From: a virus
Lineage: Duplodnaviria; Heunggongvirae; Uroviricota; Caudoviricetes
Reading direction: 5' to 3' (one strand)
DNA: 28,904 nucleotides
Virus record (IMG/VR): IMGVR_UViG_2600254985_000007
A program made the position numbers and the translations under genes. Under the pieces are notes generated by a model. The model ran no database searches. It was not told the DNA's origin and saw only the letters and a list, made by a program, of their open reading frames with translations. Shown in pieces: positions 7,400-17,428 of this stretch (positions are counted from its first letter, which is position 1; each line of letters starts with the position of its first letter).

Positions 7400-7640
7400 A
7401 GCTCACTCCATACACAAAAACAGAGAAAGGAAACGCCCTCTGGCTATTTAGCCGTTTTTAAGGCTTATCATTTCCTTTCTTTTCAGGGGGTGTTTACAGT
7501 TAAAACAATGAATTAGCGAGAAGAAGAACGGAAACGGCAAATGCCTGAAAATTTTCATAAATAGCGAGAATCTGCGAGGTCGCCGCCCCGTAACAAGGCG
7601 GATCGCCGGAAAGGACCCGCAAATGATAATAATTATCAAT
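7400..7640 (-). other. cos: cos packaging site region; cosN 12-nt cohesive-end sequence at 7577-7588, cosB toward Nu1
   Basis: Minus strand reads GGGCGGCGACCT (lambda cohesive end) followed by a CGC..TCGCTATTTATG block resembling the lambda left end. Located directly upstream of Nu1. Confidence 0.85.
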
Positions 7641-7646
7641 TGCATA

Positions 7647-8375
7647 CTATCGACGGCACTGCTGCCAGATAACACCACCGGGGAAACATTCCATCATGAT
7701 GGCCGTGCGGACATAGGAAGCCAGTTCATCCATCGCTTTCTTGTCTGCTGCCATTTGCTTTGTGACATCCAGCGCCGCACATTCAGCAGCGTTTTTCAGC
7801 GCGTTTTCGATCAACGTTTCAATGTTGGTATCAACACCAGGTTTAACTTTGAACTTATCGGCACTGACGGTTACCTTGTTCTGCGCTGGCTCATCACGCT
7901 GGATACCAAGGCTGATGTTGTAGATATTGGTCACCGGCTGAGGTGTTTCGATTGCCGCTGCGTGGATAGCACCATTTGCGATAGCGGCGTCCTTGATGAA
8001 TGACACTCCATTGCGAATAAGTTCGAAGGAGACGGTGTCACGAATGCGCTGGTCCAGCTCGTCGATTGCCTTTTGTGCAGCAGAGGTATCAATCTCAACG
8101 CCAAGCGTCATCGAAGCGCAATATTGCTGCTCACCAAAACGCGTATTGACCAGGTGTTCAACGGCAAATTTCTGCCCTTCTGATGTCAGAAAGGTAAAGT
8201 GATTTTCTTTCTGGTATTCAGTTGCTGTGTGTCTGGTTTCAGCAAAACCAAGCTCGCGCAATTCGGCTGTGCCAGATTTAGAAGGCAGATCACCAGACAG
8301 CAACGCGCCACGGAAAAACAGCGCATACAGAACATCCGTCGCCGCGCCGGACAACGTGATAATTTTATGACCCAT
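7647..8375 (-). CDS. hypothetical phage accessory protein (242 aa), between lysis cassette and cos
   Basis: ORF with SD AAGGAA 7 nt upstream of the ATG; no family recognised. Shares a conserved ~110-nt leader with the Rha gene. Confidence 0.7.
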   Translation of the reverse strand: MGHKIITLSGAATDVLYALFFRGALLSGDLPSKSGTAELRELGFAETRHTATEYQKENHFTFLTSEGQKFAVEHLVNTRFGEQQYCASMTLGVEIDTSAAQKAIDELDQRIRDTVSFELIRNGVSFIKDAAIANGAIHAAAIETPQPVTNIYNISLGIQRDEPAQNKVTVSADKFKVKPGVDTNIETLIENALKNAAECAALDVTKQMAADKKAMDELASYVRTAIMMECFPGGVIWQQCRR

Positions 8376-8747
8376 GATTTATTTCCTTTTAGACGTGAGC
8401 CTGTCGCACAGCAAAGCCGCCGAAAGTTAACGGTTTGCCCAGGCTCACAACTGAAAGACTTTCTACGGTGTGCGCGTGCGATGCGCGTAGAAGACTGATT
8501 TATCAACCTGTCTTTATATCAGGATTCATTACCTGACTATTTGTGGGTAAAGTTCGTAGTGCGCTGATCGTGCAAAATGATTTTAGTTGGGAACAGTTCG
8601 CAACTCTGTCCCATAAAAATCAGCATATTCCCATCTATCCCATATCCAGCGCATTGACCATCGGGATACTGAAGGGAGATTCCATCATCTCTTAGAAAGA
8701 TCACCATCTCTTTTGTTTCAATTTGCATATAGCTACCTGGAGGATTT

Positions 8748-9362
8748 ATGAATACAAGGATTTTCATGGACTATTACCATGAGATTGATTTTCCATCTTT
8801 ATTCGCGAGAGCAGTGGAAAGCGATGACGATGTGGGTACTACATTGCGCATTCACCTACTTTGTGAGCGCATGGTCGAAGCATGGATATGCGCATGCTGT
8901 GACTGCCAAGATCTCTTTGGAAGAGATAAAAACAAACTTTTAATCGAATGTAATACTAAAATATCCATGGCGGGAAACCTGGGAATCCCCCCGGAACTTA
9001 TGAAATCACTTAAAACCATCAACTCAATGCGTAATGACCTTGCACACAATCCATCAATACAAAGCATTGCTGATTCAAGGATCCAGAGCCTGAAGGATAC
9101 TCTGACTGAATACTTTAAACAGCATCCAACGGAACCCAGCATGGAAGAATCAAAACTGGGTATTTTTAACGCCGAGAATCAATTAACCGAAGAAGTTTCC
9201 TTAGATAGTGACAGTTCAAAAAACAGACTTAAGTTAATCTTGCTGTTCAGCAAGTTAATGCAGGCGTTAATGCAATTAGTTGCAGCTAATCATAATGGGC
9301 GCTGGGATAACCAATTTAGCCAATTCGTTTACCATGTGACCATGAACGCAACAAAGAGATAA
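8748..9362 (+). CDS. hypothetical protein, AT-rich opposite-strand gene; contains an R-x4-H motif (possible HEPN-like fold)
   Basis: 204-aa ORF on the opposite strand to all flanking late genes; GGAGG upstream of the ATG; markedly AT-rich; contains MRNDLAHN. No family assignment possible by eye. Confidence 0.65.
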   Translation: MNTRIFMDYYHEIDFPSLFARAVESDDDVGTTLRIHLLCERMVEAWICACCDCQDLFGRDKNKLLIECNTKISMAGNLGIPPELMKSLKTINSMRNDLAHNPSIQSIADSRIQSLKDTLTEYFKQHPTEPSMEESKLGIFNAENQLTEEVSLDSDSSKNRLKLILLFSKLMQALMQLVAANHNGRWDNQFSQFVYHVTMNATKR

Positions 9363-9433
9363 ATCCAAGCCCGTTTTGTACGGGCTGTTGCATTATCACA
9401 GGCACTCAGTGAATGCCTGCTGTAATGCCGCGA

Positions 9434-9952
9434 TCAGCCAATCAACAATTCTGGCTGCGTTACCTGCATGATGTGCTCATGTTCGAGCTCCAGGACGCGC
9501 TTCTCTTTCTTCCGCTCGTTCATCAAACGGCTTCCGATCGTGCCTTTCAGCTTTGAGCGCGTTTCTTTGATGGCGTAGCGATGCTGCAATTCTTCACCCA
9601 TCGCCATGCGCCGGTTTAGCTGCTCGGCCATCCAGTTGAAGGCATTGATGTAACACTCCTTCACTGCGGCAGCTGTTTTGCCAGTGAATCCCATCACTAG
9701 CATCATGCATCCGTCGCGGGTGATGTTATACATAGGCTGAACATCGCCATTTTTATCAATGAAATCAATGGGCGCAAAATTGCGCTGGGTGAAGTCATCG
9801 GAGCATTTCAGGTTACGTATGGCACGCAAAACGTCTTTGTGTCGCTTGCCAAAGTAATCCGCCACCTTGAGTGATGTGGTGATTATCTTGTTGTCGAGGG
9901 TCGTGACCATTTCGCGGAAGTCGAAGGCCGGAATAACTGACGGATTATTCAT
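9434..9952 (-). CDS. rha: phage regulatory protein Rha family
   Basis: N-terminal block ...ITTSLKVADYFGKRHKDVLRAIRNL... is typical of Rha (Phage_pRha) proteins. Start assigned to the internal ATG at 9950-9952 (MNNPSV). Confidence 0.75.
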   Translation of the reverse strand: MNNPSVIPAFDFREMVTTLDNKIITTSLKVADYFGKRHKDVLRAIRNLKCSDDFTQRNFAPIDFIDKNGDVQPMYNITRDGCMMLVMGFTGKTAAAVKECYINAFNWMAEQLNRRMAMGEELQHRYAIKETRSKLKGTIGSRLMNERKKEKRVLELEHEHIMQVTQPELLIG

Positions 9953-10094
9953 AGCGTCTTTACCTTTTAGAAAGTGAGCCTGTCTCACAGAAAAGCCGCC
10001 CGAGAGAGGTCGCCACCTATAACGGCATTTCTCAGGCTCGCTTACTGAAAGGCTCTCGTTAATATGCGCGTGAGATGCGCGTTTACTGCGGACA

Positions 10095-10119
10095 TAAAAA
10101 AGCCCCGCATCGCGAGGCT
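10095..10119 (-). terminator. intrinsic terminator downstream of Rz
   Basis: Minus strand GCCTCGC-GAT-GCGGGGC hairpin (7 bp with one G-U) followed by TTTTTTAT. Confidence 0.6.
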
Positions 10120-10150
10120 CATTAAATTGACTTTGTGATTTGCAAAAAAA

Positions 10151-10609
10151 TTATTTCAGGCATTGCGTCCTGATGTATTCCTGCAGGTAGTTAACCTGCG
10201 CGGTTATCCTGTCGATTCCACTTCGGAGACGGTAATAATTGAGTTCAGCATCTGCTGTAAGTCTTGGGCTTTCTCCATCGCCCATGCTGCTGGCTCCGGT
10301 CGTTGACTTTGCACAGGTGGCGGCGACTTGCAGCCGCTTACGGCCAGCAATGACATCGCTATGCAGACGCTCAATGGTTTCTTTCGCATCAGCCAGTTCT
10401 CCGGTGTATTTGGCATCCAGTGCAGCGACATCACGCTGACGGGTCTGCATGTCTTTGATGGTGTCGTTAGCCAGGCGGAGACTTTTGGTGGCTTTGTCGC
10501 GCTGGTCTTTGTAGGTGATGGCGTTGTCGCGGTAGTGGTTAATGGCCCAGGCCATGGAAACCAGCAGGCAGATAACGACAGCGCAGATGATTGCGGTTAA
10601 TCGGCTCAT
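10151..10609 (-). CDS. Rz: i-spanin Rz
   Basis: [39 protein letters not shown]... closely resembles lambda Rz; ATGA overlap with the endolysin stop. Confidence 0.9.
10204..10389 (-). CDS. Rz1: o-spanin Rz1 (lipoprotein), embedded in the +1 frame of Rz
   Basis: [27 protein letters not shown]...: signal peptide with lipobox LAVSGC and a proline-rich mature part, nested inside Rz as in lambda. Confidence 0.8.
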
Positions 10610-16523: not shown

Positions 16524-17428
16524 CGGATCACCCCATAGGCCCAGTCAGTGTTGTTGAAGTCCAGATCTGGCTTGACAGCGCGCTGCTCACCTCCGGCGTT
16601 ACGCTGCATTGTCAGCTTGTCCCACTGCTTACGCAGGCTTTCGGGACTCAGGATGTTGGTCTGCCAGAAGTGGTGTTTGCTAGCCCAGTCATACAGCGCG
16701 CAGATGTCCTGGTGCGACCGGTTGTCTATCTGGCGCATCAGGCGAACAGTGTTAGACCAGGAGGTCATGTCCGGGGCTTTGCAGGTTGGGTTAATCAGCT
16801 TCACCCTGGAGGAAATCCACTTAGCTGTCTCGAGGTCTTCAGCAGAGCCCCACTTCGCACCGGATGGTGTGTAGACCGCAGCTTCAGGATGAGTTGATAA
16901 AAATTTCTTCAGACGTGCGTCAGAGGATTCGTCAGAATTCTCGGACGAAGATCTTTTAATACTGTTCTTGTTCTTGTATTGGGTGTCTACCGTTTTCGGG
17001 AAGGTTATTCCTGATTTCGGGAAGGATTTTCCCGTTTTCGGGAATTTTCTTCCCGTTTCCGGTTTGTCTAAAATCCATGCTGAAAGGTCAGTGTTTACAC
17101 CGACGATTTTCATCATGCCCTGCTTCTGTGAAAAGATGATTTTGCGTTCTGCGAGAGACTTAAGCGCGTCCGATACATGCGTATCGCTCAGGCCCGTAAG
17201 CTCGGCAATAACCGTATTTGTCACGCGGTCCTGTTTCTTGTTCCAGCCGTAGGTAAGCCAGATCACCGCCTCAAAACATTGCCATTCCCGGCCTGACAGT
17301 CTCAGGCGAGGCTTAAGCTGTTGGATCTCGTTAGCGACCTTGGTATACCCGTTCGACAGGTCGGCCATACGACCTCCCGGTTGTTCGGTTTTATTTGGGA
17401 AATTGATTATTTCAGCGGTGTTTGACAT
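16520..17428 (-). CDS. O: replication initiator O (lambda O-like), contains origin iterons
   Basis: N-terminus MSNTAEIINFPN...TYGWNK... is lambda O-like. Internal repeated GKSFPKSGITFPK coding segment corresponds to DNA iterons. Start set at ATG 17426-17428. Confidence 0.88.
   Translation of the reverse strand: MSNTAEIINFPNKTEQPGGRMADLSNGYTKVANEIQQLKPRLRLSGREWQCFEAVIWLTYGWNKKQDRVTNTVIAELTGLSDTHVSDALKSLAERKIIFSQKQGMMKIVGVNTDLSAWILDKPETGRKFPKTGKSFPKSGITFPKTVDTQYKNKNSIKRSSSENSDESSDARLKKFLSTHPEAAVYTPSGAKWGSAEDLETAKWISSRVKLINPTCKAPDMTSWSNTVRLMRQIDNRSHQDICALYDWASKHHFWQTNILSPESLRKQWDKLTMQRNAGGEQRAVKPDLDFNNTDWAYGVIR
16968..17060. repeat. ori: ori iterons (four or more tandem copies of a TTTCGGGAA-type repeat) inside the O gene, followed by an AT-rich stretch
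   Basis: CCGTTTTCGGGAAGG / TGATTTCGGGAAGG / CCGTTTTCGGGAAT / CCCGTTTCCGG direct repeats, the classic arrangement of lambdoid ori within O. Confidence 0.8.

Follow-up and report, generated by a model that had tools for sequence, protein, structure and literature searches.

The antirepressor gene of phages P1 and P7 is under the control of an RNA. In their immI region, c4 is a processed antisense RNA of ~77 nt that acts in trans on icd-ant, two of its loops being complementary to sites overlapping the ribosome-binding site (RBS) of the target. In IncI-alpha and IncB plasmids, translation of a leader peptide opens a stem in the repZ/repA leader, and an antisense Inc RNA blocks a loop. The hok mRNA of the hok/sok system is metastable, with alternative long-range pairings, a 5'-3' fbi pairing and a 3' processing signal. 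Long leader hairpins of lambdoid phages (the RNase III hairpin of the lambda N leader, the alternative structures of cIII) hide the Shine-Dalgarno sequence (SD) and respond to a host factor. The Pistol ribozyme, which is often found in phage DNA, pairs the loop of its 5' hairpin with an internal loop of a downstream hairpin, in a pseudoknot of 6 bp. In FourU and ROSE thermometers, the SD is paired to a U-rich strand, and mismatches weaken the helix. Features of each of these systems recur in a leader that precedes two accessory genes of phage phi80.

The window, that is the whole stretch of DNA analyzed (28,904 nt), was identified as phage phi80. An earlier note on this DNA had claimed that the regions upstream of rha and of a gene encoding a 242-aa protein are similar to each other. 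The similarity is real, and position and coding strand are as claimed: the leaders at 9950-10080 (rha, minus strand) and 8373-8486 (242-aa gene, minus strand) align locally with a score of 72, far above the values obtained with 1000 dinucleotide shuffles (mean 15.5, sd 2.2, maximum 27; z = 25). The blocks ACGCGCATC-CACGCGCA, CTTTCAGT, GAGCCTG, GGCGGCTTT-CTGTG-GACAGGCTCAC and CTAAAAGG are identical in both leaders (MAFFT). Two copies of the core CTGTGNGACAGGCTCAC, and no more, are present in the window, where 0.2 are expected, and a covariance model derived from homologues picked out only these two sites in the whole window (120.5 and 108.8 bits), the next best match reaching 11.7 bits. The element is also strongly conserved in related phages and prophages. 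The proposed inverted repeat is present too, with the correction that the 5' arm of the rha copy reads GCGAGCCTG and not GTGAGCCTG. On balance, we favor the view that each region is a copy of a structured mRNA leader of 110–140 nt, acting in cis on the next gene (Table 1).

Table 1. Predicted elements of the two phi80 leaders and neighboring features (window positions).
Feature	Position	Strand	Remarks
Intrinsic terminator after Rz/Rz1, GAGCCTCGCGATGCGGGGCTT + T-run	10094..10120	-	13 nt upstream of rha leader; annotated in JX871397
rha leader, P1 hairpin GCGC-AUCUCAC-GCGC	10066..10080	-	MFE fold, RNAalifold; 100% paired with G-U variants
rha leader, P1 loop UCUCAC	10070-10075	-	Pseudoknot 1, 5' strand
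rha leader, element b CGAGAG	10053..10058	-	Pseudoknot 2, 5' strand; contiguous with anti-SD
rha leader, P2 5' strand CCUUUCAGUAAGCGAGCCUG	10033..10052	-	Anti-SD CCUUU at 10048-10052
rha leader, apical part: P3 AGAAA/UUUCU, P4 GCCGUU/GGCGGC, P5 AGGU/ACCU	9989..10032	-	
rha leader, internal loop b' CUCUCG	10001-10006	-	Pseudoknot 2, 3' strand; within apical part
rha leader, 6-nt bulge a' GUGAGA	9983..9988	-	Pseudoknot 1, 3' strand
rha leader, P2 3' strand CAGGCUCACUUUCUAAAAGG	9963..9982	-	SD AAAGG at 9963-9967
rha CDS from conserved ATG, 172 aa, Phage_pRha	9434..9952	-	Same ATG position used with many cargoes
242-aa-gene leader, P1 hairpin GCGC-AUCGCAC-GCGC	8472..8486	-	
242-aa-gene leader, P1 loop UCGCAC	8476-8481	-	Pseudoknot 1, 5' strand
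242-aa-gene leader, element b GAAAGU	8458..8463	-	Pseudoknot 2, 5' strand
242-aa-gene leader, P2 5' strand CUUUCAGUUGUGAGCCUG	8440..8457	-	Carries anti-SD (U)CUUU
242-aa-gene leader, apical part	8410..8439	-	b' ACUUUC (pseudoknot 2, 3' strand) at 8422-8427
242-aa-gene leader, bulge a' GUGCGA	8404..8409	-	Pseudoknot 1, 3' strand
242-aa-gene leader, P2 3' strand	8385..8403	-	SD AAAGG at 8385-8389
242-aa cargo gene (PHI80_66, N15 gp59-like)	7647..8375	-	Start codon after leader

The leader begins with a predicted GC hairpin of 4–5 bp (P1), shown by covariation. What had been described as a direct-repeat motif, CACGCGCA, turned out to be the two halves of its 4-bp GCGC/GCGC stem. Covariation also shows a putative long-range pairing, pseudoknot 1, of the six loop bases with a 6-nt bulge located in the 3' strand at the upper end of P2. 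This bulge has the consensus GUGNGA, and the central bases of loop and bulge are complementary in all 174 instances (108 of them unique), as U-A in 99, G-C in 55 and A-U in 20. The change of the central pair recurs within three of the four leader classes, which are defined by the hairpin arms. In a genome scan, the ~36 real matches from Enterobacterales were all complementary at pseudoknot 1, whereas of ~21 chance matches in GC-rich genomes, which served as a control, only 3 were. The helix is 100% paired in an unbiased MAFFT alignment; with the divergent class E included, 99.7% is paired and four of the six positions display two-sided changes. Three further positions have changed in a compensatory manner in the divergent classes (e.g. 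CCGCAU/AUGCGG and ACGCCC/GGGCGU). Copies within one genome carry different pseudoknot 1 alleles in five of seven genomes, which is about chance level. As a curiosity, it was considered whether the 7-nt P1 loop resembles an anticodon loop.

The remainder of the leader is predicted to form a rod-like hairpin (P2–P5), in whose basal helix P2 (~20 bp) the anti-SD (CCUUU or CCUA) pairs with the SD (AAAGG or UAGG), again shown by covariation. The basal P2 pairs carry two-sided changes, CCUUU/AAAGG, CCUA/UAGG, CCUUA/UAAGG and UCUUU/AAAGA all being found, as expected of a translational operator or switch in which the SD is sequestered by an upstream anti-SD. In class E, the SD is located at the very base of P2 and is weakly paired. 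P2 comprises about two helical turns, with C-A and U-U mismatches conserved at fixed places. MFE folding yielded the same structure for both window copies, with the SD paired, and the stability of the long hairpin ranges from -38 to -45 kcal/mol. P1, upper P2 and P3 were predicted independently by RNAalifold, which left the bulge unpaired. Across the nested helices 90% of the cells are paired, compared to 75.5% in shuffles and 30–49% when the partners are slid, and 23 pairs changed on both sides; cells here are sequences, not events, and recombination complicates the independence of the changes. The sequences stem from mobile elements of one bacterial order, about 5–6 lineages, and both the padded alignment (A3) and the pseudoknot 2 alignment were built by custom scripts with fitted offsets. 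Folding with covariation across homologues supports the hairpin, including its SD.

Covariation further shows a second candidate pseudoknot. The 6–8 nt immediately 5' of the anti-SD (element b) are predicted to pair with an internal loop on the 3' side (b'), placed by the same covariation one helical turn further up the rod. The position of pseudoknot 2 is shared by 78 of 82 unique leaders, more than 20 of its haplotypes covary, and element b adjoins the anti-SD in all classes. In a helix-anchored test on 47 distinct haplotype pairs, 83% of the pseudoknot 2 cells were paired against 54% in shuffles (maximum 58.8), and 111 cells showed a two-sided change against 30; an earlier version of the test, using 8-mers at a fixed anchor, was too noisy (6.3 vs 5.6 pairs). 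Across classes, the energy needed to open lower P2 increases in parallel with the duplex energy of pseudoknot 2 (-8.6/-4.2, -11.4/-7.8, -13.4/-7.1 and -16.8/-10.6 kcal/mol for lower P2/pseudoknot 2). By nearest-neighbor energies the closed state is favored by ~2–7 kcal/mol, and hence pseudoknot 2 could be a mere folding intermediate.

Judged from these sequence comparisons, the leader is probably a cis-acting translational switch that buries the RBS of accessory genes. Since element b is contiguous with the anti-SD and ~31 bp of the rod lie between b' and the base of P2, formation of pseudoknot 2 would exclude the SD/anti-SD helix, and the leader would therefore have two translational states. 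We infer this exclusion from hand-worked A-form geometry; a compact fold in which all helices coexist, save for a few frayed base pairs, could still be accommodated. In the OFF state, the full P2 would bury the SD. In the ON state, pseudoknot 2, tethered by pseudoknot 1, would pull the anti-SD away. Because formation of pseudoknot 2 need not await synthesis of the SD strand, the ON state may be co-transcriptional and transient; alternatively, a factor, a ligand or temperature might set the balance between ON and OFF. The role of the switch may be to gate or limit the synthesis of potentially harmful antirepressor-like and other cargo from an abundant late transcript.

Akin to c4, the leader would be an RNA brake on an antirepressor gene, with regulator and target on one transcript, and in both cases two short pairs of complementary elements (a', b' with a2, b2) covary between phages. 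However, c4 covers the RBS directly, whereas the pairings of the leader are intramolecular and neither extends over the SD, and P1 has only 15 nt. Antisense control of the c4 type was rejected, as the Rfam family C4 gave no match and a' and b' are located 15–40 nt upstream of the SD and leave it free. The IncI-alpha/IncB rep leaders likewise have a hairpin loop that pairs over ~100 nt with a short sequence near the RBS stem, in a pseudoknot that decides on translation, but contain one pseudoknot and not two. No conserved leader ORF was found in the class A and B leaders inspected (the rha copy contains three codons, ATG CCG TTA TAG, leader L007 a longer ORF, and the 242-aa-gene copy, phi80 copy A, none), and a promoter scan revealed no antisense promoter at the window leaders; control of the rep type was discarded on both counts. 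With hok mRNA the leader would share mutually exclusive, individually covarying pairings that control access to the SD, and a folding order during transcription that matters, but it lacks the toxin/antisense pair, the fbi pairing and the 3' processing signal, and sequence and fold are unrelated. The lambda N and cIII leaders differ in sequence and have no pseudoknots. The Pistol RNA measures only ~50 nt and has the partner strand at the 5' side of its inner hairpin; Rfam Pistol did not match, and the conserved pistol core is not apparent in the leader. FourU and ROSE elements are simple hairpins without tertiary pairings, whereas the phage leader is very stable and has two covarying pseudoknots.

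Searching the whole window with Rfam 15 at gathering score gave no match (C4, Pistol, twister, hammerhead, HDV-like, thermometers and phage sRNAs included). At E values up to 10 over 7400-10400, four weak chance matches appeared (asX2, snoU105B, mir-627, isrJ), with 18–22 bits against thresholds of 37–86. A search for tRNA and tmRNA was negative. We found no description of the motif in the literature searched on rha/phi80/IHF, KilA-N, antirepressor leaders and prophage pseudoknots, and neither Rha nor antirepressor leaders come up in the 224-motif paper (PMC5737381). The folded leader is apparently undescribed, and common in prophages of gut bacteria.

The earlier note had suggested that each leader contains its own promoter. 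The intrinsic terminator which it reported upstream of the rha copy is present (stem 10100-10120, followed by a T-run), and the proposed promoters found no support. A scan revealed no sigma-70 consensus promoter in either window leader. Furthermore, 98 of 116 distinct contexts have a terminator-like hairpin with a T-run no more than 45 nt upstream, and in 44 of those only 2–3 nt separate it from the P1 hairpin, so that there is no room for a promoter. The P1 loop covaries with a bulge ~85 nt downstream, and P1 would therefore have to be transcribed. Of 240 contexts, 109 have an Rz-like ORF upstream on the same strand, and none has one on the opposite strand. The motif sits in the late operon, right after an intrinsic terminator. 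We infer that the leader is most likely transcribed when the late Q-antiterminated transcript reads through this terminator. A phage 'moron' with its own promoter was rejected: cargo of foreign composition between terminators is indeed found, but neither leader has a sigma-70 consensus promoter, the putative promoter region is part of the folded RNA, and the terminator abuts P1. IHF has been said to regulate the rha gene (PMC4936722, citing Henthorn & Friedman 1995). Within 8373-8520 and 9950-10130, no match to the IHF consensus WATCAANNNNTTR with up to one mismatch was found, and an IHF-regulated promoter, as proposed for rha in the literature, was set aside for want of a consensus site in or next to the leaders. 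A LexA site (CTGT-N8-ACAG) does not fit, the leader motif being CTGT-N3-ACAG, and a marbox matches poorly.

Of the 'cis-regulatory RNA or DNA element' that had been proposed, the shared RNA-acting element with its SD-containing hairpin is what covariation upholds; the DNA alternative fared badly. It would make the GCGCA repeats an operator or activator site, put a -10 element into the A/T-rich linker and treat the hairpin as separate. The repeats do lie 11 bp apart, which is one helical turn, -10-like hexamers (TATAAT, TATTAA) occur in some linkers, and TTCACA is found 16 bp upstream in P22-like contexts. However, the hexamer is not conserved across classes, and the missing consensus promoter, the terminator that often ends 2–3 nt before the repeat and the covariation of the repeat region with the distant bulge all make this reading highly improbable; RNA covariation and the abutting terminator were also the grounds for rejecting the repeats as a response-regulator or operator site with the linker as -10. 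G-U variants also fit RNA pairing on the coding strand: there are 7 such cells in P1 and pseudoknot 1 and 16 in the pseudoknot 2 core, with no A-C cell in either. Were the antisense strand the functional one, as a sar-like transcript across the SD or as single-stranded DNA with the mirror-image fold, these 23 cells would turn into A-C against none at present. There is a precedent in P22, whose ant gene is controlled by the antisense sar RNA, and the conserved C-A mismatches of P2 would become G-U pairs. It is because of these mismatches that a strand test over all helices is ambiguous (90.0% paired in sense, 90.6% in antisense), and the test is informative for P1 and the two pseudoknots only. 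Given further that a conserved antisense promoter is impossible inside variable cargo genes, that the upstream terminator in phi80 is not bidirectional, and that the SD/anti-SD logic is meaningful on the coding strand only, we give the antisense strand hardly any credence.

Other readings retain the RNA on the coding strand and assign it a different task. The leader might be an element of RNA processing or stability, cut by RNase III in P2 or by RNase E in the U-rich stretch that precedes P1. Cleavage, not refolding, would then free or destroy the SD and release the cargo mRNA from the late polycistronic RNA, with P1 and the pseudoknots shaping or protecting the new 5' end. The anatomy of P2, with its two turns and fixed mismatches, is suggestive; RNase III sites of similar anatomy control translation in the lambda N leader and in T7 mRNAs, and the terminator hairpin directly before the leader could shield the upstream fragment at its 3' end. 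Nevertheless, neither the strict covariation of two separate 6-bp long-range pairings nor the constant abutment of element b on the anti-SD is explained by processing, which we regard as unlikely. A riboswitch-like sensor or a self-cleaving ribozyme, in which the state of the SD helix would be set by a small molecule, ion or protein bound to the double-pseudoknot core, or by cleavage that this core catalyzes, appears very unlikely. A double pseudoknot, invariant unpaired or mismatched nucleotides and balanced alternative structures are typical of such RNAs, but no Rfam family, ribozyme classes included, matched, the cargo genes have no common metabolic theme, and the invariance may mostly reflect the narrow taxonomic range. 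It is doubtful, too, that the leader represents a new class of sensor RNA, in which the double-pseudoknot core binds a metabolite, ion, nucleotide messenger or protein, or senses temperature, and flips the switch. A signal would in that case activate antirepressor-like genes and other cargo at a particular point in the late phase, and phages would swap the leader between genes as a portable 'plug-in' translational gate.

The leader that we interpret as a translational switch precedes at least 13 unrelated cargo families, among them Rha, KilA-N, P22 antirepressor-N, T5orf172 and HNH, and its distance to the ATG is constant despite this diversity. The motif is present across Enterobacterales, in Stx-converting, P22-like, phi80-like and Klebsiella phages among others, and one class of it in 953 of 5426 complete E. 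coli genomes (~18%). That the element marks a junction for accessory-gene exchange, as had been suggested, is supported by the variety of its cargo. Near-identical Rha genes bear two very different leader classes, and truncated and recombinant leaders exist. The cargo enclosed by the two phi80 copies is AT-rich, as had been noted: the region of the 204-aa gene has a GC content of ~0.40-0.42, compared to ~0.44-0.57 in the flanks. Upstream of rha is a terminator, and the convergent rha and 204-aa genes are separated by terminator-like hairpins.

Mapping of the leader corrects start codons that databases have set inside it; the GTG annotated as the rha start in GenBank falls within bulge a'. If the proposed fold and function are true, a structured RNA has gone unnoticed in a very common sequence. 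It would provide portable translational control for antirepressor-like genes (Rha, KilA-N, P22 Ant-N), the regulation of which is largely obscure, and a specific clue to the 40-year-old Rha/IHF phenotype of phi80 and P22. The design would be unusual, in that an anti-anti-SD acts by topology, pulling the neighboring strand, and not by pairing with the anti-SD. As a compact and modular switch with at least three apparently orthogonal kissing-pair 'alleles', it could also be tried out and reused in synthetic biology.

Two leaders, one in front of rha and one in front of a gene for a 242-aa protein, share long identical blocks when aligned, as the earlier note had claimed, with a local alignment score of 72 versus 15.5 ± 2.2 (maximum 27) in 1000 dinucleotide shuffles. 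The core CTGTGNGACAGGCTCAC occurs exactly twice in the window (0.2 expected), and a covariance model built from homologues gave 120.5 and 108.8 bits at the two sites and at most 11.7 bits in the rest of the window. The earlier observation of paired leaders stands. A BLAST search against phage records revealed 100% identity of both regions to Enterobacteria phage phi80 (JX871397); the window runs in reverse of the phage orientation and spans the joined cos site. On the minus strand the order is a Q-like gene, pR', holin, lysozyme, Rz/Rz1, terminator, rha, the convergent 204-aa gene, small ORFs, the 242-aa gene PHI80_66, cos and the terminase genes. Both leaders lie on this strand, that of the late operon.

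What had been described as a direct-repeat motif is really a hairpin (P1) whose loop kisses a bulge, as loop/bulge covariation reveals. By eye, the variable base in GCGC-N-TC-N-CAC-GCGC was first seen to track that in CTGTG-N'-GACA. Among the fetched loci, 174 instances (108 unique) comprised T/A (99), G/C (55) and A/T (20) without exception. Grouped by hairpin-arm class, the loop base was T or G in class B, A, G or T in C, A or G in D and only G in A; these states do not reduce to three clades. A genome scan offered a natural control, with complementarity in every true leader but in only 3 of about 21 chance matches from GC-rich genomes. When 41 diverse leaders were aligned with plain MAFFT, the P1 stem (GCGC/GCGC) and the 6-bp loop-bulge helix, pseudoknot 1, were 100% paired, with G-U variants (GU, UG) that included one U-G in pseudoknot 1; its central pair was G-C in 24, U-A in 11 and A-U in 6 leaders. 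On the model-based alignment pseudoknot 1 was 99.7% paired, with both sides changed at four of six positions (U-A 39/C-G 15; G-C 30/U-A 18/A-U 8; A-U 54/C-G 1; C-G 39/U-A 3).

Minimum free energy (MFE) folds of both window copies (-45.1 and -40.4 kcal/mol) consist of P1 and a single long hairpin, in which the Shine-Dalgarno sequence (SD), (A)AAAGG, pairs with CCUUU(C) while two 6-nt loops on the 3' strand stay open. From the same 41-leader alignment, RNAalifold independently predicted P1, the upper end of the long hairpin and the helix that follows it, left the six bulge bases unpaired and showed covariation at one pair (A-U 18, G-C 12, C-G 9). Because MAFFT lost the register of the basal stem across classes, a padded, register-true alignment was scripted. 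It was limited to structural segments padded with N, each sequence being allowed one fitted offset and no more than a single 1-nt bulge, and the aligner left it unaltered. In this alignment 90.0% of 2412 cells pair, versus 75.5% in shuffles and 30-49% with slid partners, 23 of 37 pairs have changes on both sides, and covariation scores 0.371 versus 0.146; two of the alignments were fitted by our own scripts or by the covariance model. Pairings of the basal helix P2 include CCUUU/AAAGG, CCUA/UAGG and CCUUA/UAAGG. Conserved C-A mismatches and a U-U mismatch occupy fixed P2 positions in every class, and one variant locus (L195) carries C-G at the first of these sites. They might adjust the stability of the helix, exist as protonated C-A wobbles or provide a site for a nuclease or protein.

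A second pseudoknot connects the linker behind P1 with the rod. Element b, the last 6-8 nt of the linker and directly 5' of the anti-SD, is complementary to b', the other open loop of the 3' strand, located between P5 and P4, for example CCCGAG/CUCGGG, CUCAGAA/UUCUGAG, CACAGAA/UUCUGUG, CGAUAA/UUAUCG, UCCCAGAG/CUCUGGGG, UCCUGGAG/CUCCGGGG and UCCCUAAG/CUUAGGGG. The best linker-to-apex helix lies at this place in 78 of 82 unique leaders. Over 8 columns, 47 distinct haplotype pairs were 83% paired, compared with 54% (maximum 58.8) for shuffles and 34-55% for slid partners; both sides had changed in 111 cells versus 30, and the 6-bp core held 16 G-U and no A-C cells. A complete leader of Trabulsiella guamensis (L236) has both pseudoknots intact; a T-run replaces its start codon, so that it is either decayed or has another use.

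The phi80 copies differ in both kissing pairs (UCUCAC/GUGAGA and CGAGAG/CUCUCG at rha, UCGCAC/GUGCGA and GAAAGU/ACUUUC at the 242-aa gene). Further two-leader phages are represented by loci L050, L152, L213, L233, L199 and L134, and at the loci checked for both pseudoknots the copies were unlike in at least one. Differing pairs might avoid cross-pairing in trans; the pseudoknot-1 allele differed between copies in 5 of 7 genomes, which is not above chance.

Close Rha homologues were fetched by protein similarity, and all 80 had a model match ending at the Rha ATG. About 33 of these scored only 40-60 bits and form the divergent class E, which played no part in forming the hypotheses. Every element is retained in class E under different sequences: GCGC-ACCGCA(U)-GCGC for P1, CCGCAU/AUGCGG for pseudoknot 1 and CGUCGA/UCGACG or CACCGA/UCGGUG for pseudoknot 2; in the MFE fold the ACC directly after element b pairs with the GG of the SD. 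At the level of sequence, class E is an independent confirmation of the leader structure. Summed over all helices, pairing is 90.0% on the coding strand and 90.6% on the other; this overall equality arises because each conserved C-A mismatch of P2 would turn into a G-U pair in the complement. P1 and both pseudoknots contain 23 G-U and no A-C cells; hence a functional RNA fits the coding strand only, and only there does SD/anti-SD pairing have meaning. PHI80_65, annotated antisense to one leader, is probably not a real gene.

Coordinates of features (positions in the window unless a homologous locus is named)
Feature	Position	Strand	Remarks
rha leader	9950-10080	-	
242-aa-gene leader	8373-8486	-	
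Annotated rha (PHI80_62) start	9953-9988	-	GenBank start is GTG at 9988, inside the a' bulge
ATG with conserved SD	9952		Same position serves many other cargo genes
P2 mismatches (examples)	10047/9968, 10039/9976		
204-aa gene	8748-9362	+	AT-rich; between both leaders; convergent to rha
PHI80_65	8199-8498	+	Hypothetical protein, 99 aa; antisense to entire 242-aa-gene leader and start of PHI80_66
Tandem repeats	16990-17062		Three 31-nt repeats, spacing 21 nt (CCGTTTTCGGGAAGG..TTCC..)
Trabulsiella guamensis leader	L236:2858-2983		Pseudoknot 2 CCAUGAG/UUCAUGG
Second copy, more distant than class E	L134:2122-2250		P1 GCGCC/GGCGC; pseudoknot 1 ACGCCC/GGGCGU; pseudoknot 2 ACAGAG/CUCUGU

BLAST found the rha-type leader in 191 phage records, which comprise Stx1/2-converting phages, P22-like phages (HK620, CUS-3 and epsilon34, for example) and phages of Klebsiella, Salmonella and Enterobacter; the 242-aa type was found in 51. 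Two pattern scans of viral contigs each yielded at least 120 loci. A scan of one genome per species gave about 36 true copies, all of them in Enterobacterales (Enterobacteriaceae, Pantoea/Erwinia, Arsenophonus, Chimaeribacter, Symbiopectobacterium). The leader set has a narrow taxonomic range, with few truly independent lineages and frequent recombination among leaders. Three more copies lay in MAGs labelled Cellvibrionaceae, Bacillota and Collinsella; binning contamination seems likely, since over the leader two of them match the scan's E. coli copy exactly and the third is identical to a leader common in viral contigs. Phages listed under Actinobacillus and Elizabethkingia carry leaders near-identical to the enterobacterial ones. 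Counting the rha-type leader alone, 953 of 5426 complete E. coli genomes have it, with up to four copies each, and in none of them is it annotated as RNA; a CDS, mostly of the Rha family, is listed under most matches.

The terminator reported upstream of the rha copy was confirmed. Of 116 distinct contexts, 98 have a terminator-like hairpin and T-run no more than 45 nt upstream; the stems vary in sequence between contexts, and in 44 of these the hairpin ends only 2-3 nt before P1. In 109 of 240 contexts an Rz-like ORF precedes the leader, always on the leader's own strand; elsewhere other late-region genes are seen. Neither a consensus promoter, which had been proposed for each leader, nor an IHF consensus was found in the window leaders. 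The leader would arise from the Q-modified late transcript through terminator read-through. According to PMC4936722, rha lies in the late operon and harms phage growth when IHF, 'which regulates the rha gene', is absent.

The genes that follow the leader form 13 unrelated clusters (Phage_pRha; KilA-N; P22_AR_N; Rha+ANT; T5orf172/MUG113; HNH_3; a GT2-like 485-aa protein; an N15 gp59-like 242-aa protein; several unknowns), across which SD-to-ATG geometry is constant. As this conserved SD and ATG are present at rha and the equivalent GTG frame of the 242-aa copy runs into a stop, the annotated rha start probably lies 12 codons too far upstream; Actinobacillus phage pPE4 has its KilA-N gene starting from the same GTG. 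Truncated or recombinant leaders in viral contigs (L086, where the 3' two-thirds are fused to unrelated DNA; L131, L161, L173, L177 and L201, where the P1 box and linker precede unrelated sequence or a terminator) are evidence for recombination breakpoints within the leader. The 204-aa gene had no Pfam match, a weak PADLOC match to the CARF_HEPN model (E = 0.004) and an RNDLAH (Rx4H) motif in its product. The Rx4H motif is typical of HEPN RNases, and the gene is a candidate for abortive-infection or defence cargo. Elsewhere in the window, tandem repeats resemble iterons, presumably of the phage replication origin.

The spacing of a' and b' equals P3 (5 bp) plus P4 (6 bp), one helical turn, and hence both face the same side of the rod; the linker from P1 to b (6-11 nt) could bridge them. 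Element b adjoins the anti-SD at the base of the 20-bp P2, and b' lies about 31 bp up the rod. By a steric argument made by hand from A-form dimensions, pseudoknot 2 would require at minimum the basal 5-10 bp of P2, the SD helix, to be open, even with the rod folded back at the a' bulge. Full P2 would hide the SD, and pseudoknot 2, aided by the pseudoknot 1 tether, would free it; from two pairings that would exclude each other, both of them preserved by compensatory change, we infer a switch. Pseudoknot 2 can already form while the SD strand is still to be made, so the open state may last only briefly, during transcription. By nearest-neighbour energies the closed state is the more stable one, by a few kcal/mol. 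By class, the energies of lower-P2 opening and of pseudoknot 2 are -8.6/-4.2, -11.4/-7.8, -13.4/-7.1 and -16.8/-10.6; cost and strength rise together (Spearman 0.74, with only about four independent classes), which suggests a tuned balance of two states. Folding kinetics, temperature, a host protein, a ligand or RNase cleavage could tip it.

In c4-icd/ant of P1/P7, an antirepressor is braked by two covarying complementary pairs on one transcript; in the IncI-alpha/IncB rep leader, a loop-to-distal pseudoknot decides translation; hok mRNA adopts metastable alternative pairings. The leader resembles all three in logic. It is not a member of these systems: it has neither leader peptide nor antisense gene, it folds differently, and its complementary elements leave the SD uncovered. 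The pistol ribozyme shares the pairing of a hairpin loop with an internal loop, in mirrored topology, and no Rfam model matches the leader. Judged against open-access text, outside which an older description may exist, we file it as a new family among structured cis-acting mRNA leaders that gate the SD, whose design would be an unusual, topology-driven double pseudoknot.
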